This document shows positions 31,943 to 43,281 of a stretch of DNA of 64,000 bases, piece by piece (the first letter of the stretch is position 1; each line of letters begins with the position of its first letter). The DNA is from Actinomycetota bacterium (GTDB lineage Bacteria > Actinomycetota > Geothermincolia > Geothermincolales > RBG-13-55-18), in assembly GCA_030019255.1 (NCBI GenBank), contig JASEFK010000001.1, forward strand, positions 25,012 through 89,011. Direction: 5' to 3'. The notes below the pieces were generated by a model. That model saw only the letters and a program-made list of their open reading frames with translations, had not been told where the DNA came from and did no database searches. Position numbers and translations under genes: made by a program.

Positions 31943-32734
31943 ATGCCCTACGACTACGACCTGCTCATCGTGGAGGTTAAGGACGGCGTGGCTACGGTGA
32001 CCCTGAACCGTCCTCCGCTCAATCCCTTGAACGCGGACCTTTTCCTGCAGATCGGGAAATGCGCGGAGGAGCTCACCCTGGATGACCAGGTGCGGGCGGT
32101 GGTCATCACCGGCGGGGAGAAGAACTTCGCCGCCGGGGCGGACATCAAGGAGATGGTGGAACAGGGGGCAGTGGACATCGCCAGGTTCATAGGCATCGCC
32201 CAGGAGAGCTTCACCAAGGTGGAAAATATTCCCAAACCGGTTATCGCCGCCATCAACGGCTTCGCCCTGGGCGGGGGGTGTGAGTTGGCCATCACCTGCG
32301 ATTTCCGCTTCGCCCATGAGAACGCCAAGATAGGGCAGCCGGAGATTCTCCTGGGGATCATTCCCGGGGCGGGCGGGACCCAGAGGCTCCCCCGCCTCAT
32401 AGGTCCGGCGAAGGCCAAGGAGATGATCTACAGCGGCCGTTTCTACAGCGCCCAGGAGTGCCTGGAGATGGGGCTGGTCCAGAAGGTGGTCACCGGGGAC
32501 GAATCGGTCATCGAGTACGCCCAGAAGGTGGCCGCCAAGTACGCCGCCGGCCCGGCGGTGGCCCTGGCCATGGCCAAGCGGGCCATCAACAAGGGCATAG
32601 AGTGCTCCATAGAGGAGGGGCTGATCATCGAGGCCCAGGGCATCGCCCTGTGCTTCGCCTCCGAGGACCAGAAGATAGGCATGCGAACCTTCCTGGCCGA
32701 GGGGCCGGGGAAGGCCAAGTTCGTGGGCAGGTAG
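31943..32734 (+). CDS. crt: Enoyl-CoA hydratase (crotonase family)
   Basis: FAAGADI, ALGGGCEL, QPEILLGIIPGAGGTQRL (both catalytic Glu). Confidence 0.92.
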   Translation: MPYDYDLLIVEVKDGVATVTLNRPPLNPLNADLFLQIGKCAEELTLDDQVRAVVITGGEKNFAAGADIKEMVEQGAVDIARFIGIAQESFTKVENIPKPVIAAINGFALGGGCELAITCDFRFAHENAKIGQPEILLGIIPGAGGTQRLPRLIGPAKAKEMIYSGRFYSAQECLEMGLVQKVVTGDESVIEYAQKVAAKYAAGPAVALAMAKRAINKGIECSIEEGLIIEAQGIALCFASEDQKIGMRTFLAEGPGKAKFVGR

Positions 32735-32837: not shown

Positions 32838-34007
32838 ATGATCGATTTCGAACCCACCGAAGAACAGAAGGCAGCAGTGAAAATGGCCCACGACTTCGCC
32901 CTCAACGAGATGCGCCCCATCGCTCTCGAGTGCGACAAGGAGGGCAAGATCCCCGATGAGCTGATCAAGAAGGCGGCGGCCGCGGGACTAACGGCCATGG
33001 CCATCCCCGAGGAATACGGCGGCGGCGGCCTGGACCAGGTCACCGCGGCCATGGTCAGCGAGGAGCTCTTCTGGGGTTGCGCTGGAATCGCCACCACCCT
33101 GGGGGCCAATAGCCTGGCCACCACCCCCATGCTCATCGCCGCCAACGAGGAGCAGAAGAAGAAGTACTTCCCCCGGCTGACCGACCCCGAGAACCCCAAG
33201 TTCGCCGCCTTCTGCCTGACCGAGCCGGGGGCGGGTTCCGACGCCGCCTCCATCTCCACCACCATCCGCGAGGAGGGTGACTACTACGTGGTGAACGGGC
33301 AGAAGTGCTTCATCACCAACGGGGGGATAGCCGACTTCTACAGCGTCTTCTGCACCTTCGACAAGGAGAAGAAGTACGGCGGCATCGCGGCCATCATCGT
33401 GGAGCGGGAGTACGAGGGGGTCTCCATCGGGAAGAAGGAGGACAAAATGGGGATCCGGGCCTCCAACACCACGGAGGTTATCTTCGACAACGTCAGGGTC
33501 CCCAAGGAGAACCTCTTCGTGCCTATGGGCCAGGGCTTCTACAACGTGATGGTCACCCTGGACATGACCCGCGCCAGCGTGGCCGCGGGGGCGGTGGGCA
33601 TCGCCCGCGCCGCCTTCGAGGAGGCCCTCAAGTACGCCAAGGAGAGGGTACAGTTCGGCCGCCCCATCATCGCCCAGCAGGCCATCAGCTTCATGCTGGC
33701 GGACATGGCCATGCAGATCGAGGCGGGACGCCGGCTCTACCTGCTGGCCGCCTGGAAGGCCTCCAAAGGACTGCCGTGCTCCCTGGAGTCCTCCTACGCC
33801 AAGGCCTTCTGCGGGGACATGGCCATGCGGGTGACCACCGACGCGGTGCAGATCCACGGCGGGTACGGATACATGAAGGAGTACCTGGTGGAGAAGCTCA
33901 TGCGCGACGCCAAGATCATGCAGATCTACGAGGGCACCAACCAGATCCAGAGGGTGGTCATCAGCGCCAACCTGATGGGCGTCACCGACACTTACCCCTG
34001 GGGTTAA
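32838..34007 (+). CDS. Acyl-CoA dehydrogenase (short/branched-chain type)
   Basis: FCLTEPGAGSD, NGQKCFITNG, KMGIRASNT, RVQFG, QIHGGYGY, QIYEGTNQIQR. Confidence 0.95.
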   Translation: MIDFEPTEEQKAAVKMAHDFALNEMRPIALECDKEGKIPDELIKKAAAAGLTAMAIPEEYGGGGLDQVTAAMVSEELFWGCAGIATTLGANSLATTPMLIAANEEQKKKYFPRLTDPENPKFAAFCLTEPGAGSDAASISTTIREEGDYYVVNGQKCFITNGGIADFYSVFCTFDKEKKYGGIAAIIVEREYEGVSIGKKEDKMGIRASNTTEVIFDNVRVPKENLFVPMGQGFYNVMVTLDMTRASVAAGAVGIARAAFEEALKYAKERVQFGRPIIAQQAISFMLADMAMQIEAGRRLYLLAAWKASKGLPCSLESSYAKAFCGDMAMRVTTDAVQIHGGYGYMKEYLVEKLMRDAKIMQIYEGTNQIQRVVISANLMGVTDTYPWG

Positions 34008-34048: not shown

Positions 34049-34080
34049 AAGGGGGCGCTTCCCGGCGCCCCCTTCGCTTT
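34049..34080 (+). terminator. Intrinsic terminator
   Basis: AAGGGGGCGC-TTCCCG-GCGCCCCCTT then CGCTTT. Confidence 0.7.
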
Positions 34081-34303: not shown

Positions 34304-35311
34304 ATGAAGATCGGCATCACCACCACCGTGCCCGTAGAGGTCATCTACGCCGCCGGACATATCCCGGTGGACCTGAACAACGTCTTCGTCTCCCACCCGG
34401 AGAGGGAACGGCTCATCGAGGAGGCGGAACTGGCCGGTTTCCCCCGTTCCTTCTGCGCCTGGGTGAAGGGCATCTACGGCGCGGCAAGGGAGATGGATGA
34501 CCTGGGTGCCGTGGTGGCGGTGACCCAGGGGGACTGTTCCAACACCCACGGCCTCATGGAGACCCTGCAGTCGGAGGGGATGGAGGTCATCCCCTTCGCC
34601 TATCCCTATGAGAGGGATTACGTCCTGCTGCGGGCCCAGGTGGAGGCCTTCATGCGCCGCCTGGCCGTGGACTGGCACGAGGTGGAGGATACCTTGAGGC
34701 GCCTGGACCGGGTGCGGCGGCGGGCGCACCGCCTGGACGAGCTGACCTGGAAGGAGGGGCTGGTGACCGGACTGGAGAACCACCTTGTCCTGGTCGGCTG
34801 CAGCGACATGGAGGGGGATCCCGATGCCTACGGCCGGAAGCTCGAGGACTTGCTGGCCCGCGTCGGGGAGAGGGAAAGGGACCCCGGCTTTCCCCGTGCC
34901 GGGGACATGGTGCGCCTGGGTTACTTGGGCGTTCCCCCCATGGCCCCCGAGCTCTACGATTACCTGGAGACCCTGGGGGCCAGGGTGGTGTACAACGAGG
35001 TCCAGCGCCAGTTCAGCCTGCCCTTCCGCACCGCGGACCTGGTGGAGAAGTACCGCCGCTACAGTTACCCTTATTCCATATTTTACCGTTTAAGGGATAT
35101 CCGGAGGGAGGCGCGCCGCAGGCGGCTGGACGGTCTCATCCACTATGTGCAGAGTTTTTGCTTCCGCCAGGTGGAGGACATTATCCTCCGCCGTTCCCTG
35201 TCCCTCCCCATGCTCACCTTGGAGCTGGACCGCTCCTCCCGCCTGGACGCCAGGACCAGGATGCGCCTAGAGAACTTCGTCTCCATGCTCCGGCGCGAGA
35301 AGCACGGGTAA
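34304..35311 (+). CDS. 2-hydroxyacyl-CoA dehydratase-like (HgdB/FldBC fold) single-subunit Fe-S protein
   Basis: TTTVPVEVIYAAG, three spaced Cys (RSFCAWVKG, TQGDCSNT, QSFCFR), LTLELD...RTRMRLENF. Confidence 0.78.
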   Translation: MKIGITTTVPVEVIYAAGHIPVDLNNVFVSHPERERLIEEAELAGFPRSFCAWVKGIYGAAREMDDLGAVVAVTQGDCSNTHGLMETLQSEGMEVIPFAYPYERDYVLLRAQVEAFMRRLAVDWHEVEDTLRRLDRVRRRAHRLDELTWKEGLVTGLENHLVLVGCSDMEGDPDAYGRKLEDLLARVGERERDPGFPRAGDMVRLGYLGVPPMAPELYDYLETLGARVVYNEVQRQFSLPFRTADLVEKYRRYSYPYSIFYRLRDIRREARRRRLDGLIHYVQSFCFRQVEDIILRRSLSLPMLTLELDRSSRLDARTRMRLENFVSMLRREKHG

Positions 35312-35437
35312 GTTCCCGGCCGTGTCCCCGCAGCGGCGTCCCGTTTCCGCGGTTTTCGGGCGGGCGTGGGGTAACATAAAGTTGGGACAGCGCACCCGGG
35401 GTGCCGCCCGGAGGTTGAAGAGGAGGTAGGTATACCA

Positions 35438-36202
35438 GTGGACGCGCGGTGCGGGGTGGACCTGGGAAGCCGCTTCGTCAAGATAGCCGTTGAGGTGGAC
35501 GGGGATAGACGCTTCCTTGGCCCTTTCGACACCGCCGAGTTCTACCGGAAGCACATCGAGGCCGGGAAGGACGGCGGAGCGCTTCGGAAGAAGGATTTCG
35601 GCCTGGGGGAGGAAGTGCGCGTGGGTGCCACCGGCTACGGCAGGGCCCGCTTGGGAGGAGGAGCGGTGATGTTCCCGGAGCTGGAGGCCATTGCCGCCGG
35701 GGTGGCGGCCATGACCGGCATAAGGGAAGCTGTCATCCTCGACGTGGGGGGCCAGGATTCCAAGGCCCTGCTGGTGAGGGATGGAAGGTTGGCCGATTTC
35801 GAGGCCAACGACCGCTGCGCGGCCTCGGCGGGGAAGTTCCTGGAGAACATGTCCAGGGTGCTGGGGATGGACTGGGAGGAACTGGGAAGATACCGGGAGG
35901 ACCCGGTGGAGCTTTCCTCCACCTGCGCCGTGTACGGGGAGACGGAGCTGGTGGGCCTGCTGGGCGAGGGATGGCCGGTGGAGAGGCTGGCCGCGGGGGT
36001 TAACCGGGCCATCCTCGGCCGCCTCCTTCCCCTCCTGGCCCGTTTCCCCAGGAGAACCCTGGTCCTCACCGGGGGCGTGGCCCGCAACCGGGCCCTGAGA
36101 GCGATGCTGGCCGACCGACTGGGTGTGGAACCCGTGGTCCCCGAGCCCCCCGACTTCGTCGCTGCCGTGGGATGCTGCCGCCTGCTCTTGGAGGAGGTTT
36201 GA
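35438..36202 (+). CDS. Acyl-CoA dehydratase activase (HgdC/BadF-G ASKHA ATPase)
   Basis: GVDLGSRFVK, ATGYG, ILDVGGQDSK, NDRCAA, SSTCAV, LTGGVA; two Cys for a bridging [4Fe-4S]. Confidence 0.9.
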   Translation: MDARCGVDLGSRFVKIAVEVDGDRRFLGPFDTAEFYRKHIEAGKDGGALRKKDFGLGEEVRVGATGYGRARLGGGAVMFPELEAIAAGVAAMTGIREAVILDVGGQDSKALLVRDGRLADFEANDRCAASAGKFLENMSRVLGMDWEELGRYREDPVELSSTCAVYGETELVGLLGEGWPVERLAAGVNRAILGRLLPLLARFPRRTLVLTGGVARNRALRAMLADRLGVEPVVPEPPDFVAAVGCCRLLLEEV

Positions 36203-36203
36203 G

Positions 36204-36608
36204 TTGGCCGCCGATTACGAGATCGTAGTGGGAACCCATTTCGACGCCGCCCACCGCCTTCCCGGATATCCCGGGCCCTGCTCCAGGCTGCACGGACACC
36301 GCTGGAGGGTGGAAGCGGCGGTCGCCGGGGGCGAGCCGGGGGAGGGAGGGATGGTGGTGGACTTCCTGGTTCTCAAGCGCATCCTCGGCGAGATCGTGGC
36401 CCCATTCGACCACCGCTGCCTGAACGAGGTGGAGCCCTTCACGCGCGTCGTCCCCACCTCCGAGAACCTGGCCTGGCACATCCACCGGAGATTCTCCGAG
36501 CGAGTAAGGGGACTGGGAAAGGATATCCGCGTCTCCTGGGTGGCGGTATCCGAATCGCCGGACACCCGCGTGGTCTACCGCGAAGGAGATCGGGAGCGGC
36601 CAGGATAA
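36204..36608 (+). CDS. queD: 6-carboxytetrahydropterin synthase
   Basis: FDAAHRL, CSRLHGH, FDHRCLNE, PTSENLA, VSES; TTG start 1 nt after the activase stop. Confidence 0.92.
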   Translation: MAADYEIVVGTHFDAAHRLPGYPGPCSRLHGHRWRVEAAVAGGEPGEGGMVVDFLVLKRILGEIVAPFDHRCLNEVEPFTRVVPTSENLAWHIHRRFSERVRGLGKDIRVSWVAVSESPDTRVVYREGDRERPG

Positions 36609-36703
36609 CAAGGGGTGTGGTCTTCCGGCCCGAAGATAGGCGATCGGAGGGCAGAATCCCGCAGGGCGGGAATCTCGGTCACGGGAAGGGCATGGGGAAA
36701 GAA

Positions 36704-37408
36704 ATGAGGAGGAAGAAAAAGGAAAACCTGGTCCTCCTCTCCGGAGGCCTGGATTCGGCGGTCAACTTCCTCCTGGCCCTGAGAAGGGGCGGCGTGGCCC
36801 TGGCACTCACCGTGGATTACGGCCAGAGGGCGGCCCGGAGGGAGGAGGAGAAGTCCGCCGCCCTATGTAGGATACACGGAGTGAAACACGAGATACTTCG
36901 GGCCAGCTGGGTGGCGAAGTTCTCCAAGGATGCGCTAACCAATCTGGAAAAGGAGCTTCCCCGACCGGGGAGACGGGAGCTGGAGGACCCCGGCTGGAGG
37001 AGGGAGGCGGCGCGGGCGGTATGGGTGCCCAACCGCAACGGTCTGCTGGTACACATGGGAGCCTGCCTGGCCGAGGCCCTGGGGATACCTTACCTGGTCA
37101 TGGGGCTGAACGCCGAGGAGGGCGCGGCCTTTCCCGACAATTCCCCCGGCTTCGTGCGGGAGATGAACCGTGCCCTCGGATATTCCACCCGGGGGCGGGT
37201 GCGCCTTAGGAGTTTCACCCTGCACTGGGACAAGCGGGAGATCATGCGCGCTGCCCTGCAGCTCGGGCTGCCCCTGGAGCTTACCTGGCCGTGCTATAAT
37301 GGGGGCGACCTGTGGTGCGGAAAATGTGAATCCTGCCTGCGTTTCCGGGCGGCGGCGGAGGCGCTGGGCGAGGAGCATAGGTTGAAGGGCCTCTTTTCAC
37401 CGGGATGA
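36704..37408 (+). CDS. queC: 7-cyano-7-deazaguanine (preQ0) synthase
   Basis: LLSGGLDS, YGQRA, WVPNRN, FPD, TWPCY..CGKCESC. Confidence 0.92.
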   Translation: MRRKKKENLVLLSGGLDSAVNFLLALRRGGVALALTVDYGQRAARREEEKSAALCRIHGVKHEILRASWVAKFSKDALTNLEKELPRPGRRELEDPGWRREAARAVWVPNRNGLLVHMGACLAEALGIPYLVMGLNAEEGAAFPDNSPGFVREMNRALGYSTRGRVRLRSFTLHWDKREIMRAALQLGLPLELTWPCYNGGDLWCGKCESCLRFRAAAEALGEEHRLKGLFSPG

Positions 37409-37439
37409 TTCGCAGGGGTGGGTTCGGCAGGGGTGATAC

Positions 37440-38027
37440 ATGAAGGGCAAGTACATCAAGGGGAGGAGCATCACCTACGACGGTACGCAGCTGCGCTCCC
37501 TTTACGCCTTCACCGAGCACGACGTACAGGGCGACTCGGTAGTTGCCTTTCGCGGTCCCTGCCGGGTACAGGCGGAGAACCTGGTGGACGTGGAGGACCG
37601 CAAGAAGGGGGCGGAGATCTACAGTGAGGACATGGTCCACTTCATAGTGGAACTCTTCGATTCCGACCTTCCTCGCACCCTGGCCCTGCAGAGGCTCTTC
37701 CTGTGCGTCATCAAGGACGTCATCGAGGAGCTCAAGCCCGAGCTCTTTATAAGCAGGCGCGGGGACGATCTCTACATCGAGGTCGAGGTGGAGGAAGGCC
37801 AGGAGGAGAACCGCAAGCTCACCGTCTCCGTGGCCACCGCCAGCCCGGTTTCCAACCTCATCCATGTCGGCATCAACGTCTCCAGCCGCAACACCCCCGT
37901 GCCCACCCTGGGGCTGGAGGACCTGGAGATCCCGGTGGATGACTTTATCCTCAAGGTGATGCAGGGCTTCATCAACGAGATGAAGGGCATGGAGTCGGCC
38001 CGCTGCAAGGTCCGCGGCGTGAGCTGA
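37440..38027 (+). CDS. DUF366 family protein
   Basis: YDGTQL, GDSVVAFRGPC, LVDVED, MVHFIVE, QRL, RGDDLY, KLTVSVAT, IHVGINV (recognised from memory). Confidence 0.8.
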   Translation: MKGKYIKGRSITYDGTQLRSLYAFTEHDVQGDSVVAFRGPCRVQAENLVDVEDRKKGAEIYSEDMVHFIVELFDSDLPRTLALQRLFLCVIKDVIEELKPELFISRRGDDLYIEVEVEEGQEENRKLTVSVATASPVSNLIHVGINVSSRNTPVPTLGLEDLEIPVDDFILKVMQGFINEMKGMESARCKVRGVS

Positions 38028-38228
38028 CCTGTTTCGGCTCGCCGCCCATGCGACCTTGTTTCAAAGAACTGGCGCGTAAAACTCGGACATGGCGCGGGAA
38101 GAGCGTGCTTGACCGGAATGGCACCAGGCGGATGGAAAGTATGGCCGGTTAAAGACGGCACTTCTGCCCAGGGATCTCCGGGAAGGGATCGACCCGGCGG
38201 GAAAAGGAGTCGCCGGAGGTGAACAAGA

Positions 38229-39560
38229 ATGGATATCTCCAGAAGCAGGGTGTGGTTGAGGGGAGTCATCAAGGCCTGGGCCAAAAGGGTTTTCGGCGGC
38301 ACCGTCGTTTGGAGAATCGCGCAGAAGGTTAGACATTCCCTTCCCCGGCGAGGGGTAAGAGTGGCCCTCCATGCCCTCTATAGAAAAATCCTGCTCTGCC
38401 TGTTGCCCCGGGACACAGCCTACCGATGGGCGCAATCCCAGATCCAGAACCAAAATTTCTACGGGGCCGATTATTTCGACGCCCGCGACAAGTCCGGGAA
38501 GGAAAGCGGGTGCATCGGAGGCTACCCGGAGGTAGAGGATTTCGGGAGGTTGGCCCTCCTGGCCAAGGAACTGCTGGAGGTGAAAAGCGCGCTGGATATT
38601 GGCTGTGCCAAGGGATTCCAGGTTAAGGCACTGCGCCTGGAAGGAATTGACGCCTGGGGTATCGACCTGAGCGAGTACGCTATAAGTACGGCTCCCGATG
38701 AAGTCAGGCCTTGGTTGAAGGTCTGCAGCATCCAGGAAGCGGATTTCCCCGCAGGTTCCTTCGAACTGGTCTTGGCCATGGAACTTCTGGAGCACATCCC
38801 CTTAACCGACATAGAGGAGGTGATTCGCAAGCTGTATTTTTTCACCTCTCGCTTTGTCCTGGCGACCATCCCTTCCTTCGGACCCAATCCGTACGGGATG
38901 GACGGGTGGCTGGAGGAGAAAATAAATCCCCGGAAGATACCTCGTTATCGGGATCATCTCATCGATCTCGCGGAGATGAAACACCTCATCGTTGATTCCC
39001 AGGGCTTGCCCCAGCACGGACATATGCTCATCGCCAGCTACGATTGGTGGACGTCCCTTTTTACCCGCTATGGATTCCAGAGGAGGGGGGACCTGGAAAG
39101 GGAGATCAACCGGAGGCTCGTTTTGGCCAGGGAGGGGAAATGGTGCTGCTACTTATTTGAAAAGGTGGAGCCCGGCGGGGAGGGGGTGAAGCCCCTGCGT
39201 CTGGAAGAAGGCGATTTCGTCCACCACGGCGGAAGGTGGGAAAGTTTAACCCACCTGCTTCCCCGGGGAATTTACTGCCTGAGCGTGGAGCTGGACATGC
39301 CGGGAGTGGGCCGCGTAAGACCTGTCGATGAACGGTTGCTTTCCCTGGTTTGCCTCTCCAAGGATGGGGAGAGGATTCATGCCCAGCGCCTGGTCACCAA
39401 GAGGGAGTTGCCCGGAAAACGGGGAAATGGCGCGTTTAAGACATCCTTGGTCTGCGCCGTGGACGGTGATGCAGAAATCATCCTGCGACTGGAACCAGGG
39501 CCCGGAGCTCTTTGCAGGCCCCTGTCCGCCCTCTACACCCCACTCGGCAAAGAGACGTGA
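38229..39560 (+). CDS. Class I SAM-dependent methyltransferase domain protein with an unassigned C-terminal domain
   Basis: ALDIGCAKG motif I, GIDLSEYAI, FELVLAMELLEHI. Confidence 0.75.
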   Translation: MDISRSRVWLRGVIKAWAKRVFGGTVVWRIAQKVRHSLPRRGVRVALHALYRKILLCLLPRDTAYRWAQSQIQNQNFYGADYFDARDKSGKESGCIGGYPEVEDFGRLALLAKELLEVKSALDIGCAKGFQVKALRLEGIDAWGIDLSEYAISTAPDEVRPWLKVCSIQEADFPAGSFELVLAMELLEHIPLTDIEEVIRKLYFFTSRFVLATIPSFGPNPYGMDGWLEEKINPRKIPRYRDHLIDLAEMKHLIVDSQGLPQHGHMLIASYDWWTSLFTRYGFQRRGDLEREINRRLVLAREGKWCCYLFEKVEPGGEGVKPLRLEEGDFVHHGGRWESLTHLLPRGIYCLSVELDMPGVGRVRPVDERLLSLVCLSKDGERIHAQRLVTKRELPGKRGNGAFKTSLVCAVDGDAEIILRLEPGPGALCRPLSALYTPLGKET

Positions 39561-39788
39561 AGGCGGTGAATATTCGACGGATCGTCTGCGGCCGTGGCCG
39601 TTAAAAGAGAGTCTTTGGCCGTTCTTCCGGTGGCCGTTCCGCGGGCTTGGGGTTCGGTACGAGGGCGGGATGGGCGGCCCGTTTCGATGGGGGCGGTCCT
39701 CCGGCATGGGCGGGGCATCGGCCCGGCGATAACGTTCGGTGACGCGTATCCGGGATGGCCCGGGTCCGGGGATGTGCGGACATGGATT

Positions 39789-40643
39789 ATGGATGCCTTG
39801 AACGTGGTGGAAATCTTTCCCTCCTTCCAGGGCGAAGGATTGCTGGTGGGCGTATCCCAGGTCTTCGTCCGTCTGGGTGGATGCAACCTGAGGTGTTCAT
39901 ATTGCGATACGCCTGAAGCCAGGGGGGAAGCTAAGGCTTGCCGGGTATACGGCAGGGAGGAGTTCCTGGAAACTGTTGCCAACCCGCTGGCCGCCAAGGA
40001 CTTGGCGGGAAAGATCGCCTCCCTCTGGAGTCACGGCATGCACTCGGTGAGCCTAACCGGCGGTGAGCCCCTGCTGCAGGTAGAGGGCCTTGCGGATCTG
40101 CTGCCGCTCCTGAGGGATGGGGGGATGGCCATCTACTTGGAGACCAACGGGACCCTTCCCGCCGAGCTGGAGAAGATAATCCCCTGGGTGGACTGGATAG
40201 CCATGGACCTCAAGCTTCCCTATTCCCAGGAAGGGAAGGATTTTCTGGATGACCACAGGGAGTTCCTGCGCCTGGCCTCCCGCCGCAAGGTCTTCCTCAA
40301 GGTAGTGGTGGAGGAGGACACCCCGGAAGAGGAACTGGAGAAGTTCTGCCGGGGAACGGCCGAGGTGAACCGGGACGTACCCCTGGTTTTGCAGCCGAAA
40401 AGTGTACTCGCAGAGGGAGGGCGGTTGAAAACCGGATCCCGTGAAGGGACCGGGCAGGCACCGAGAGGGGAGAAAAAGACCGGCGCCGGCAGGCGCCTGC
40501 AGGAGTCCGGCAGGGATTATCGGTGGGGCTGGAGAGTGGGGATAAGTCCGACACGGGCGGGCCGCCTACAAGCCATCGCATCTGCCTATTTCCGTGAAGT
40601 CAGGGTCATACCCCAGCTCCACCGCGCCTGGGGCATGAGGTAA
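39789..40643 (+). CDS. queE: 7-carboxy-7-deazaguanine synthase (radical SAM)
   Basis: EIFPSFQGEG, FVRLGGCNLRCSYCDT, LTGGEPLLQ, LETNGT, LQP, VRVIPQLH. Confidence 0.92.
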   Translation: MDALNVVEIFPSFQGEGLLVGVSQVFVRLGGCNLRCSYCDTPEARGEAKACRVYGREEFLETVANPLAAKDLAGKIASLWSHGMHSVSLTGGEPLLQVEGLADLLPLLRDGGMAIYLETNGTLPAELEKIIPWVDWIAMDLKLPYSQEGKDFLDDHREFLRLASRRKVFLKVVVEEDTPEEELEKFCRGTAEVNRDVPLVLQPKSVLAEGGRLKTGSREGTGQAPRGEKKTGAGRRLQESGRDYRWGWRVGISPTRAGRLQAIASAYFREVRVIPQLHRAWGMR

Positions 40644-40760: not shown

Positions 40761-41402
40761 ATGGCCCTGGAACATTCTCCGCAGGAGTTGAAGGAAGCCC
40801 GCGAGGCTGCGCTGCGCAAGTTCCGACTGCTGGACCCCTCCTGGATGGCCGCCCGCTCGGGCACCTTCTATTCCTACCCGCGGCGGCTTTTCGTCGTGCC
40901 CTTCTTCGGGGAGAGGTACACTGTCTCCTACCCCGAGGGGTCTGTCTCCCGCGATGACGGAAGCGCCGCCGGGGCCCGGGAGGCGCTCATCATCCTCCAT
41001 TACCTGGTACATGCCGACGGGACCCGGGTGTGCGGCCGGTGGATAGCCTACCGGGACCTTCCGGGAGCCCGCTATCATGAACCGGCCTTCGCGACCGAGG
41101 TGGAGAGGCCCCTGTCCCTGGGTCTGGCCGGCCGACTGGAGGCCCTGAGGGCGTGGGCTGCAACCGCGGCCCGGCAGGTGGACCTCCCGGGGGACATCTC
41201 CGCCGCCTGGGATGTCCTACCTCGGGTTCCCCTGCTCCTGGTCTTCAACGAGGCTGACGAGGAGTTCCCCGCCTCGGCGCGGATCTTCTTTGACGCCACC
41301 GCTCCCAATTATCTGCCCACCGAGGACCTTTCCGTGCTGGCGGAGATAGCCGCCCTGCGCATACTGGAGAGTGTGGGCGCCCTGGGAGGAGGAAGAGGTT
41401 AG
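40761..41402 (+). CDS. DUF3786 family protein
   Basis: LIILHYL, WIAYRDLPG, LPRVPLLLVF.EADEEFPASARIFFD...YLPTED (from memory); upstream TGcTATATT extended -10 at 40718-40726. Confidence 0.75.
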   Translation: MALEHSPQELKEAREAALRKFRLLDPSWMAARSGTFYSYPRRLFVVPFFGERYTVSYPEGSVSRDDGSAAGAREALIILHYLVHADGTRVCGRWIAYRDLPGARYHEPAFATEVERPLSLGLAGRLEALRAWAATAARQVDLPGDISAAWDVLPRVPLLLVFNEADEEFPASARIFFDATAPNYLPTEDLSVLAEIAALRILESVGALGGGRG

Positions 41403-41636
41403 GGTCGCCGGTGGGGCACACGACCATCCCGGTGGCTGGAATATCCTGGTGACCGGTTTTCGTGCTTAAACGACTTGGCTAAAGCCCAAGCGATTGATGA
41501 GGACGCCAGCTGTTCAAGGCCGGGGACATAGGGTATTATTAAGGGCAAGTTATCATTTTACGAAAGCGCGGAGGAGGTTGGTAGCACACGGCGAACGGGT
41601 GAGCTTGGTTTGGTGTGTGCGGCGGCGATGGACGGC

Positions 41637-42137
41637 ATGACACGGGTACTGGTTCTGAACGCTTCCTATCAGCCCCTTAACCTGGTGAACCTCAGGAGGG
41701 CGGTGGTCCTGGTCCTCAAGAAGAAGGCGGAGATCATCGAAGAGGGGGAGGGGACCCTGCGTTCGGAGAAGCTGACCATGCCCTTTCCCACGGTTATCCG
41801 GCTGGCCCATTATGTGCGCGTGCCCTACCGTTCCGTGGCCCTGAGCCGCCGCGCCGTCTTCGCCCGAGACAACCACACCTGCCAGTATTGCGGGGGAAGG
41901 GCGGAGAGCATCGACCACGTGGTGCCGCGCAGCCGGGGTGGGGAGCACACCTGGGAAAACGTGGTGGCCGCCTGTCGGAAATGCAACACTCGCAAGATGA
42001 ACCGCCTGCCCGCCGAGGCGGGCCTGAAGCTGCTGCGCAAGCCCTTCGAGCCGCACGATCACATCTGGTTCCTGGCCCTGGCGGGGGATATACACCCCAC
42101 CTGGGAACCCTACCTGGACACGGCCATGGTGGGATGA
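41637..42137 (+). CDS. Stand-alone HNH endonuclease
   Basis: VLVLNASYQPL, RDNHTCQYCG, IDHVVPRSRGG..WENVVAAC.KCN. Confidence 0.9.
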   Translation: MTRVLVLNASYQPLNLVNLRRAVVLVLKKKAEIIEEGEGTLRSEKLTMPFPTVIRLAHYVRVPYRSVALSRRAVFARDNHTCQYCGGRAESIDHVVPRSRGGEHTWENVVAACRKCNTRKMNRLPAEAGLKLLRKPFEPHDHIWFLALAGDIHPTWEPYLDTAMVG

Positions 42138-43156
42138 TCTCCTCGGACTTCGATTACGCTGGGCTGGTGAACCCCATAAGGGACGACATAATCCATATCG
42201 ACATACCCATCCCCCACGTCCTCCGCAACGTGAACCTCTACCTCTTCCTGGGAAGGGAGCCGGCCCTCATCGACGCGGGGCCCTTCCACCCCCTGCTGGC
42301 GGAGGTGGTGGAGGGGGCCCTCAGATACGCAGGGGTCCGCCGGCTGTCCCGCCTTTACCTCACCCATTCCCACATCGATCACTTCGGTCTGGCGGAGAGG
42401 ATACGGCGCTCCACCGGCGCGGTAGTGGTGGCGCACCGGGAGGAGGCGCCGCGCATCGAGAGGGTCCGCAGCCGCCTAAGGCGCGAGTATTGCTGCTATG
42501 CCGACCTGAGTGCCGCGCTCGGCTTCCCCAAGGAGTTTTCGGATGCCATTTTCTCCCTCGCCCACCGGTGGATAGAGCTCTCTGAACCCTGCCCCCTGGG
42601 ACTGAAGCTCAAGGGAGGGGAAACGGTTCCGGCGGGCGATCGTCTCCTCGAGGTGGTGCATACCCCGGGACATACCGCCGGTCACCTCTGCTTTTACGAA
42701 CGCGAAGAGGGCCTCCTCTTCTCGGGCGACCACCTCATGCGCTCCATCACGCCCAACCCGGAGCTCTACTGCCCGCCGCGGCGCGGCCGCCTCACCGGCC
42801 TCCCCCAGTTCATCGCTTCCCTCGAGCGCCTCAGGGAACTGCCCGTGGATACGGCCTATCCAGGGCACGGCCGACCCATAGGGAAGGTGAGGAGGAGGAT
42901 AGATTTCAACATCCTCCACCACCGCAAGAGGCTGGAAAAGACGGAAGAGGCGGTGTTGGAGGGCGGGCGCACGGTGTGGGAGGTGGCCCTGAGCCTCTTT
43001 CCGCAGGTGCGGGACAAGCCTCCGGATGTGGACCACTTCCTGGCCCTGAAGGAGGCCCTGGGCCACCTGCTCATCCTGGAGGAGGGAGGAAGGGTGAGAC
43101 GCCGGGAAACGGACGGCGTGTGGAGGTTCGAACCCGCCCCCGTTCGGCCTGATTGA
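42134..43156 (+). CDS. MBL-fold metallo-hydrolase
   Basis: LTHSHIDHFG, HTPGHT, FSGDH, YPGHG. Confidence 0.9.
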   Translation: MISSDFDYAGLVNPIRDDIIHIDIPIPHVLRNVNLYLFLGREPALIDAGPFHPLLAEVVEGALRYAGVRRLSRLYLTHSHIDHFGLAERIRRSTGAVVVAHREEAPRIERVRSRLRREYCCYADLSAALGFPKEFSDAIFSLAHRWIELSEPCPLGLKLKGGETVPAGDRLLEVVHTPGHTAGHLCFYEREEGLLFSGDHLMRSITPNPELYCPPRRGRLTGLPQFIASLERLRELPVDTAYPGHGRPIGKVRRRIDFNILHHRKRLEKTEEAVLEGGRTVWEVALSLFPQVRDKPPDVDHFLALKEALGHLLILEEGGRVRRRETDGVWRFEPAPVRPD

Positions 43157-43206: not shown

Positions 43207-43281
43207 GCCCTTGTAGCTCAGCGGATAGAGCAGTGGCCTCCGGAGCCACGTGCGGGAGTTCGAATCTCCCCAAGGGCACCA
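43207..43281 (+). tRNA. tRNA-Arg (anticodon CCG)
   Basis: Acceptor GCCCTTG/CAAGGGC, D arm GCTC/GAGC, anticodon arm GTGGC-CTCCGGA-GCCAC, T arm GGGAG-TTCGAAT-CTCCC, encoded CCA. Confidence 0.96.

Follow-up and report, generated by a model that had tools for sequence, protein, structure and literature searches.

Why should an ATP-driven iron-sulfur (Fe-S) redox system be built into an operon for the 7-deazaguanine base preQ0? The question is raised by seven consecutive plus-strand genes at positions 34304-40643 of a 64-kb stretch of DNA, referred to here as the window. They form a real operon of a Candidatus Solincola (Geothermincolia, Actinomycetota) bacterium, in which queD, queC and queE, together with a gene of the DUF366 family, are joined to an orphan two-protein redox machine consisting of an HGD-D family Fe-S protein (HgdD below) and an HgdC-type activase. 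The same pair recurs beside preQ0 genes in other gene orders and in a cultured bacterium of another phylum. We tentatively propose that it may be an ATP-driven, low-potential reductase of a free 7-deazaguanine base, most likely reducing preQ0 to preQ1. This interpretation is a reasonable, partly supported lead and not a demonstration.

The redox pair and its operon

The seven genes of the operon are as follows.

34304..35311, plus strand: single-subunit HGD-D family Fe-S protein, 335 aa, putative catalytic component (PF06050)
35438..36202, plus strand: HgdC-type ATP-dependent activase with the ASKHA fold, 254 aa, GTG start after GAGGAGG (TIGR00241)
36204..36608, plus strand: queD, 6-carboxytetrahydropterin synthase, TTG start (TIGR03367, 93 bits against a cut-off of 89)
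36692..37408, plus strand: queC, 7-cyano-7-deazaguanine synthase, FPDN variant (TIGR00364, 150.9 bits against 150.3)
37440..38027, plus strand: DUF366 protein (PF04017, 212 bits)
38229..39560, plus strand: class I S-adenosylmethionine (SAM) methyltransferase, 443 aa, between DUF366 and queE (Pfam)
39789..40643, plus strand: queE, 7-carboxy-7-deazaguanine synthase, a radical SAM enzyme (best NCBIfam matches are all QueE models, below their cut-offs)

An initial annotation of this DNA had described such a same-strand run, and its observation is confirmed because the family searches and tblastn agree with it. Pfam and NCBIfam searches recover all seven genes at the positions it gave, and the spaced cysteines that it had pointed out in both redox proteins are present. 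It had also reported that the window lacks queF, tgt, queA and folE; tblastn queries of E. coli QueF, Tgt and QueA and of FolE/FolE2 from fetched loci gave only noise in the 64 kb at E <= 1. Nor did we see a second dehydratase subunit or a CoA-transferase beside the pair, again as reported, and tblastn found no second HGD-D paralogue in the window. The single nucleotide claimed between activase and queD is there: one base lies between the activase stop codon TGA (36200-36202) and the queD TTG at 36204, which opens MAADYEIVVGTH, and a Shine-Dalgarno sequence, GGAGGAGG, lies inside the activase gene 8 nt upstream of that TTG. Because queD starts 1 nt past the activase stop, we regard the two genes as translationally coupled.

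The Fe-S protein scores 123.3 bits against PF06050 (cut-off 28.4), with residues 7-329 covered. Cysteines C51, C78 and C286 are invariant in 80 homologues and again in 42 sequences, while C166 is kept in 90% of the 80. The family is strongly conserved, with 50-60% identity between phyla. Across 42 diverse family members, 58 positions are invariant, these three cysteines among them; many of the 58 are polar or aromatic, and their conservation across phyla argues for one fixed small substrate. The AlphaFold2 (AF2) model of the protein has a pLDDT of 92.9 and in Foldseek matches HadB/HadC, DCCP, BzdN/O and MbdO/N with template-modelling (TM) scores of 0.73-0.83 and E values of 1e-11 to 1e-15. A family profile searched against the Protein Data Bank (PDB) finds DCCP at E 1e-11 and HadC at E 7e-6, with the three cysteines aligned to DCCP cysteines. 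The nearest structures are thus ATP-dependent reductases and dehydratases (DCCP, HadBC, BzdNO/MbdON), and the Pfam score, the fold, the conserved cysteines and the two-cysteine ASKHA activase partner all place the protein in the HGD-D/HAD-BCR-DCCP superfamily.

Within that superfamily, the best PDB profile match is DCCP of Carboxydothermus hydrogenoformans with its ATPase DCCP-R (PDB 6ENO, 7YYL; E 1e-11, TM 0.79-0.83), which, like the window pair, has one kind of catalytic subunit and an HgdC-like ATPase. The window protein differs in being ~90 residues shorter at the N-terminus and in having only 3-4 conserved cysteines; the [8Fe-9S] cluster of DCCP we take to be held by six. It is not a DCCP orthologue, because it reaches 46 bits against an NF040772 cut-off of 350. 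HgdAB/HgdC, HadBC/HadI (PDB 3O3M), BzdNO and MbdON (PDB 8S02, 9G87) share with it the Pfam family HGD-D, the fold (TM 0.73-0.79), a three-cysteine [4Fe-4S]-type site and the activase. In contrast to the window protein, those dehydratases are heterodimers of paralogous subunits acting on CoA thioesters supplied by CoA-transferases or ligases, whereas here there is one subunit, the partners are que genes, and no CoA-transferase or ligase is seen alongside. Because the DCCP equivalog model fails and the DCCP N-terminal region and extra cysteines are absent, the protein is best described, on sequence grounds, as a minimal, single-subunit, single-cluster member of the HAD/BCR/DCCP superfamily. Its cluster is probably of the three-cysteine [4Fe-4S] type and its functional state probably a homodimer.

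At 50% identity, the matches of an exhaustive hidden Markov model (HMM) search fall into 548 clusters, of which 184 have E <= 1e-30. The real fusions in this set join the protein to an activase (several database proteins) or are tandem HGD-D domains; the latter are rare, distant and found elsewhere, relatives otherwise having one HGD-D gene per locus. One fusion to SpoIID and one to RrnaAD look like gene-calling artefacts and were set aside. No homologue of the family was found on viral contigs. The family is acidic, with a median isoelectric point (pI) of ~5.3, which may fit a small-molecule substrate better than a tRNA, though it suggests so weakly.

The activase scores 160 bits against TIGR00241 (cut-off 125) and carries the two cluster-bridging cysteine motifs, NDRCAAS and SSTCAVYGE. 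Of 113 informative loci, 83 (73%) have it next to the Fe-S gene, and the fusions of HgdD to activase confirm the partnership; they give no clue to the substrate. In an Actinomycetota sub-clade (loci L005 and L007-L014 of our collection) no activase gene stands between HgdD and queD or anywhere else in the fetched locus.

As a canonical preQ0 operon the que genes hold up well: QueD and QueC pass their NCBIfam cut-offs and QueE qualifies by motifs and orthology. QueC has FPDN where we take the canonical motif to be YPDC, and its start is uncertain (GTG 36617, ATG 36692 or ATG 36704). QueE scores 81 bits against cut-offs of 206-300, yet has the EIFPSFQGEG and CNLRCSYCDT (CX3CX2C) motifs and is orthologous to queE in the other operons. 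Its open reading frame opens at GTG 39594; homologues start at MDALNVVEIFPSFQGEG. At 284 aa, the protein also exceeds its homologues (249 aa) by ~35 residues, owing to a Gly/Arg/Lys-rich low-complexity insert near the C-terminus.

Recurrence of the linkage to que genes

Relatives were collected by searching one genome per species for the Fe-S protein, which returned 531, and further loci by a metagenome scan seeded with the L062 protein, by look-ups of cluster representatives and by a plasmid search. Counts of linkage refer to the 161 loci of the two scans, to which L173 and the Ilyobacter locus are additional. The nearest relatives, up to 90% identical, belong to Candidatus Solincola and other Geothermincolia metagenome-assembled genomes (MAGs). 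Other genome matches are 52-60% identical and come from Peptococcaceae/Desulfotomaculia, Negativicutes, Heliobacteriaceae, Syntrophobacterales, Thermodesulfobacteriota and Chloroflexota; among these, only L062 has a que gene within 10 kb.

The family is linked to que genes in 27 of the 161 loci (~17%), in L173 and in Ilyobacter, in five gene orders. The Actinomycetota order, with HgdD-que linkage in 23 loci, is enoyl-CoA hydratase (ECH)-acyl-CoA dehydrogenase (ACAD)-HgdD-[activase]-queD-queC-DUF366-queE-DUF3786. Locus L085 reads queD-queC-DUF366-queE-HgdD-activase-tyrS, its genes overlapping or nearly abutting, with L062 and L084 representing fragments of this arrangement. In L155 the order is queD-(homocysteine methyltransferase)-(MTHFR)-queE-HgdD, and in L173 it is queD-x-queE-x-HgdD. 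The proteins at 7304-9085 of L155 have a homocysteine S-methyltransferase domain and an MTHFR-like domain, and MetH lies near HgdD in a clade with divergent murI (below), so that a pterin/folate theme may run through these neighbourhoods.

The fifth order is the strongest new fact. On megaplasmid pILYOP01 of Ilyobacter polytropus DSM 2926, a cultured member of the Fusobacteriota, an annotated six-gene operon reads HgdD-activase-queD-queE-folE-queC. It consists of the pair and four preQ0 genes only, without DUF366 or queF; adjacent genes are spaced by -1 to 13 nt, and the operon has a terminator hairpin after queC as well as an attenuator-like hairpin in its leader. The Ilyobacter HgdD keeps 56 of the 58 family-invariant residues. 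Its queC, in an operon without DUF366, is annotated as canonical. In the leader, a 66-nt stretch matches a single Rfam family, PreQ1 (RF00522), below threshold, and a terminator hairpin then follows. The same leader has a hairpin followed by AAACAAAACUAGGG, resembling the tail of PreQ1-I, and may hold a divergent preQ1 riboswitch.

Across ~170 loci, queF, tgt and queA occur inside the cluster in none, and E. coli QueF finds no tblastn match in the window or the fetched loci. A maximum-likelihood tree implies three changes of the que-linked state; the approximately unbiased (AU) test nevertheless does not reject a single clade (p = 0.32), and we have dropped the claim that the linkage was gained repeatedly and independently. 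Because one clade is not rejected, we base the case for the linkage on its varied gene orders. The linkage has withstood extensive rearrangement and is present in no fewer than two named phyla, Actinomycetota and Fusobacteriota. A full-text literature search found no paper connecting dehydratase activases, HGD-D or double-cubane proteins with preQ0, preQ1 or queuosine, and the Ca. Solincola genome paper (PMC12917137) does not mention queuosine.

Elsewhere the family keeps other company. In Bacillota the pair lies within the block amidase/gerM-murI-[HgdD-activase-MBL]-rph-rdgB-yfcE, to which Negativicutes add a CofE-like ligase, a hydantoinase-like protein and an HDAC-like protein. A third clade (metagenome contigs, Desulfobacterota-like) has a divergent murI with MetH farther upstream and, after the pair, genes for a dihaem cytochrome and an HExxH protein. 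Neighbouring murI genes are found in loci from L021 to L163 (e.g. L086 9121-10969, L127 8637-10972), on the same strand in Bacillota and divergently in the third clade; other members lie near further cell-wall genes (amidase_3, SLT, PBPs, a Mur ligase), with no explanation tying these to 7-deazaguanines. Eight further 50%-identity clusters sampled for context gave HgdD-activase-DUF2148-tyrS, tyrS-SLT-HgdD, HgdD-activase with queA 7 kb downstream, TatD-HgdD-HEAT and HEAT-HgdD; two contexts were uninformative and two contigs too short to read. HisKA is also among the other neighbours of the family.

Some of these neighbours point back to tRNA. The tyrS gene lies within two genes of HgdD in three loci and arrangements (L085 4958-5873, L169 10512-11672, L170 6072-7232), although the three genes are 54-58% identical to one another and the organisms may be related. 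Since tRNA-Tyr is one of the four tRNAs that bear queuosine (Q), the adjacency is a modest hint toward Q. Taken with the queA gene 7 kb off in one locus and rph in Bacillota, neighbours related to tRNA or Q appear more often than expected.

DUF366, the methyltransferase and the flanking genes

DUF366 is a widespread partner of queC and queE and a module independent of the Fe-S pair. In Desulforamulus ferrireducens the order is queD-queC-DUF366-queE-folE, and in a deltaproteobacterial MAG DUF366 sits between queC and queE, in both cases with no HgdD within 10 kb. A 350-aa gene upstream of queD in Desulforamulus was considered as a candidate HgdD and ruled out; it encodes a TPR protein. Because the Ilyobacter pair does without DUF366 and these two genomes have DUF366 without a nearby HgdD, the two are independent add-ons to the preQ0 genes. 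The initial annotation had suggested that the pair and DUF366 together form a functional analogue of the archaeal enzymes ArcS and RaSEA; that idea is weakened, since in Ilyobacter the pair accompanies a canonical queC with no DUF366 and DUF366 occurs elsewhere without HgdD. Pfam and NCBIfam searches of the operon proteins likewise gave no ArcS (TGT-like/PUA), RaSEA, QueF-like T-fold or GATase-QueC fusion.

DUF366 matches PH0223 of Pyrococcus horikoshii (PDB 2DDZ, Pfam DUF366), a protein of the same family and fold, at E 3e-32, and its AF2 model (pLDDT 92.6) gives a Foldseek TM of 0.88 to that structure. Matches to the catalytic domains of BPL and LplA are weaker (E ~1e-6, Foldseek TM 0.5-0.6), and BirA and LplA have accessory domains that DUF366 is without. 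The predicted structure thus has a biotin/lipoate-protein-ligase-like fold. A full-text search of the literature found no paper that gives a function for DUF366, PF04017 or COG2029.

The methyltransferase is a recent lineage-specific insertion. It occurs only in the window and in its nearest relative, L001 (2 of 23 lineage loci), and the 38-40 kb segment has a GC fraction of 0.591 against ~0.64 elsewhere; on these two grounds we rejected it as a member of the pathway. The initial annotation had counted it within the run, and its presence there is borne out, while its membership of the conserved unit is not, being confined to the window and L001. The gene is flanked by gaps of ~200 nt on both sides, and its N- and C-terminal regions have no domain match.

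Outside the seven genes, the features of note are these.

31943-32734, plus strand: enoyl-CoA hydratase (Pfam), directly upstream
32838-34007, plus strand: acyl-CoA dehydrogenase (Pfam), directly upstream
34049..34074, strand not assigned: GC-rich hairpin of 10 bp with T-rich flanks (called by the terminator scan for the minus strand alone; TTCGCTTT, the plus-strand tail, was read by eye)
40761..41402, plus strand: DUF3786 protein (Pfam), downstream of queE, with synteny in the Actinomycetota lineage

The two upstream genes had been overlooked in the initial annotation. Their synteny with HgdD is conserved across the Actinomycetota lineage and in that lineage only. The ACAD gene is separated from HgdD by 297 nt that include the hairpin, a probable transcription boundary between the ACAD gene and the operon; in some relatives 1-2.7 kb of other sequence intervenes. 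We consider ECH and ACAD a unit separate from the que operon. Downstream of queE, the DUF3786 gene holds the same position in 17 related loci, throughout the Actinomycetota lineage. Beyond it lie an HNH endonuclease (41610-42137), an MBL-fold hydrolase (~42140-43156) and a tRNA gene (43207-43278, 68 bits).

What the pair may do

Under the proposal made at the outset, the activase, on binding ATP, would pass an electron of very low potential to the three-cysteine [4Fe-4S] cluster of a probable HgdD homodimer, the open Fe site of that cluster would bind the substrate, and the nitrile of preQ0 would be reduced to preQ1, a step otherwise carried out by the NADPH-dependent QueF. We infer substrate and reaction from the company that the pair keeps: the operon partners make the free base preQ0, the linked operons are without queF, and in L085 the pair comes after queE, all of which point to preQ0 as the probable substrate and preQ1 as the product. 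That last position is also the one that queF occupies in what we take to be the queCDEF order of the Bacillus subtilis operon. The likeness to QueF would be one of function only. The pair has no sequence or fold relationship to it, no operon protein gives a Pfam or NCBIfam match to the QueF T-fold (PF14489), and the source of electrons would be an ATP-driven Fe-S system and not NADPH.

A number of observations weigh against reduction of preQ0 by the pair. The initial annotation had held that the idea would suffer if homologues rarely neighboured queCDE in other genomes; the linkage does recur, in its five gene orders, and about 83% of the 161 sampled homologues are not beside que genes, which in part speaks against it. 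Independent origin of the linkage is not demonstrated (AU p = 0.32). No activase stands beside HgdD in 10 of 19 informative que-linked loci and in 27% of informative loci overall, and none of the HMM search clusters contains a fusion of the family to any Que enzyme. Adjacency to murI, in two unrelated arrangements, goes unexplained by a preQ0 reductase. At the gathering score, the Rfam models PreQ1-I, -II and -III find nothing at 31-44 kb of the window or in 29 related loci, and the Ilyobacter leader (L178 11859-11975) reaches 12.3 bits with RF00522 against a gathering score of 39, which we do not count as riboswitch evidence. Moreover, we know of no precedent for nitrile reduction in the HAD/BCR family, and elimination of an epoxide or hydroxyl group is nearer to the known chemistry of that family.

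Two other readings of the pair deserve serious weight. It may be a housekeeping ATP-driven reductase or dehydratase of strict anaerobes whose substrate is unrelated to 7-deazaguanines, the que operons reflecting co-regulation, shared cofactor needs or inherited synteny; we regard this as nearly as probable as reduction of preQ0. Most loci do lie among murI, amidase, rph, rdgB and yfcE, as in Bacillota, or among the neighbours typical of Negativicutes and the Desulfobacterota-like clade, TatD, HEAT-repeat and HisKA contexts occur as well, cell-wall genes (murI, amidase_3, SLT, PBPs, Mur ligase) recur, and a single que-linked clade is compatible with the AU test. However, without selection for co-expression it is difficult to account for five gene orders whose junctions are tight or overlapping and which span at least Actinomycetota and Fusobacteriota, and the Ilyobacter operon holds the pair, four preQ0 genes and nothing else. 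The murI-rph block of Bacillota, moreover, presumably also exists without the pair, so that this context says little about function. Alternatively, the pair may serve another step of 7-deazaguanine or queuosine metabolism, be it support of QueE, reduction of epoxyqueuosine (as an analogue of QueG or QueH), reduction of the 7-carboxy-7-deazaguanine (CDG) carboxylate, or synthesis, with DUF366, of a derivative that is new or archaeosine-like. This seems to us somewhat less likely again, though several facts lend it substance. HgdD comes directly after queE in L085, L062, L084 and L155, and in L155 and L173 the que genes beside it are queD and queE alone, queC being absent. The known chemistry of the family is elimination of oxygen functions and very-low-potential reduction. 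One member lies 7 kb from queA, and two are flanked by HEAT-repeat proteins, QueG itself having a HEAT-like tRNA-binding domain. Against such a role, DUF366 is dispensable for the linkage (Ilyobacter) and is found without the pair nearby, the HgdD protein is acidic, and the clustering is with the genes for the free base (folE, queD, queE, queC) and never with tgt, queA, queG or queH inside the operon. As for support of QueE, many radical SAM enzymes of strict anaerobes are reduced with no ATP-driven system dedicated to them. For epoxyqueuosine, on the other side, a 2016 review noted that its reductase is missing in many Q-containing bacteria (PMC5699537).

It strikes us as very improbable that the Fe-S protein is a standard 2-hydroxyacyl-CoA dehydratase, partnered by the upstream ECH and ACAD and placed beside que genes by accident. 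The Pfam family name and public annotations do say 2-hydroxyacyl-CoA dehydratase, and the ECH-ACAD-HgdD synteny is conserved in the Actinomycetota lineage. Nevertheless, the hairpin and 297 nt (1-2.7 kb in some relatives) lie between ACAD and HgdD, the gene downstream of the pair is the translationally coupled queD, and there is no second subunit in the window; neither such a subunit nor a CoA-transferase is seen beside the pair in the fetched loci. Among the conserved neighbours CoA-transferases and ligases are likewise not seen, and ECH and ACAD stand upstream, behind the hairpin, in this lineage only. Homologues 52-60% identical live in other phyla without acyl-CoA genes nearby, and no such genes flank the homologues in Bacillota, the Desulfobacterota-like clade or Ilyobacter. 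The initial annotation had likewise leaned away from a conventional acyl-CoA dehydratase, and its view gains from the single subunit, the lack of a CoA-transferase seen adjacent and the absence of acyl-CoA genes in other clades.

It is conceivable, although doubtful on present evidence, that many strict anaerobes (Geothermincolia, Desulfotomaculia/Peptococcaceae, Negativicutes, Syntrophobacterales, Fusobacteriota and others) make preQ1 by an oxygen-sensitive, ATP-driven, single-cubane enzyme of the HAD/DCCP type and not by QueF. Such an enzyme would be a nitrile reductase that injects low-potential electrons at an open Fe site, and its reaction would supply a physiological substrate for a minimal member of the DCCP/HAD superfamily. 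To our knowledge the bacterial queuosine and 7-deazaguanine pathway is treated as fully assigned, and we know of no physiological substrate for DCCP or for the DCCP-like minimal ATP-driven Fe-S reductases. The finding places a conserved family (184 clusters at 50% identity, E <= 1e-30) within preQ0 operons of several phyla. The hypothesis can be tested in a cultured organism, because Ilyobacter polytropus DSM 2926, a non-pathogenic strain whose genome is finished, carries the clean six-gene operon. If the link is real, the pair would either stand in non-orthologously for a known step (QueF, or QueG/QueH) or add a new one, and the chemistry of the HAD/BCR/DCCP superfamily would extend to a nucleobase or nitrile substrate.

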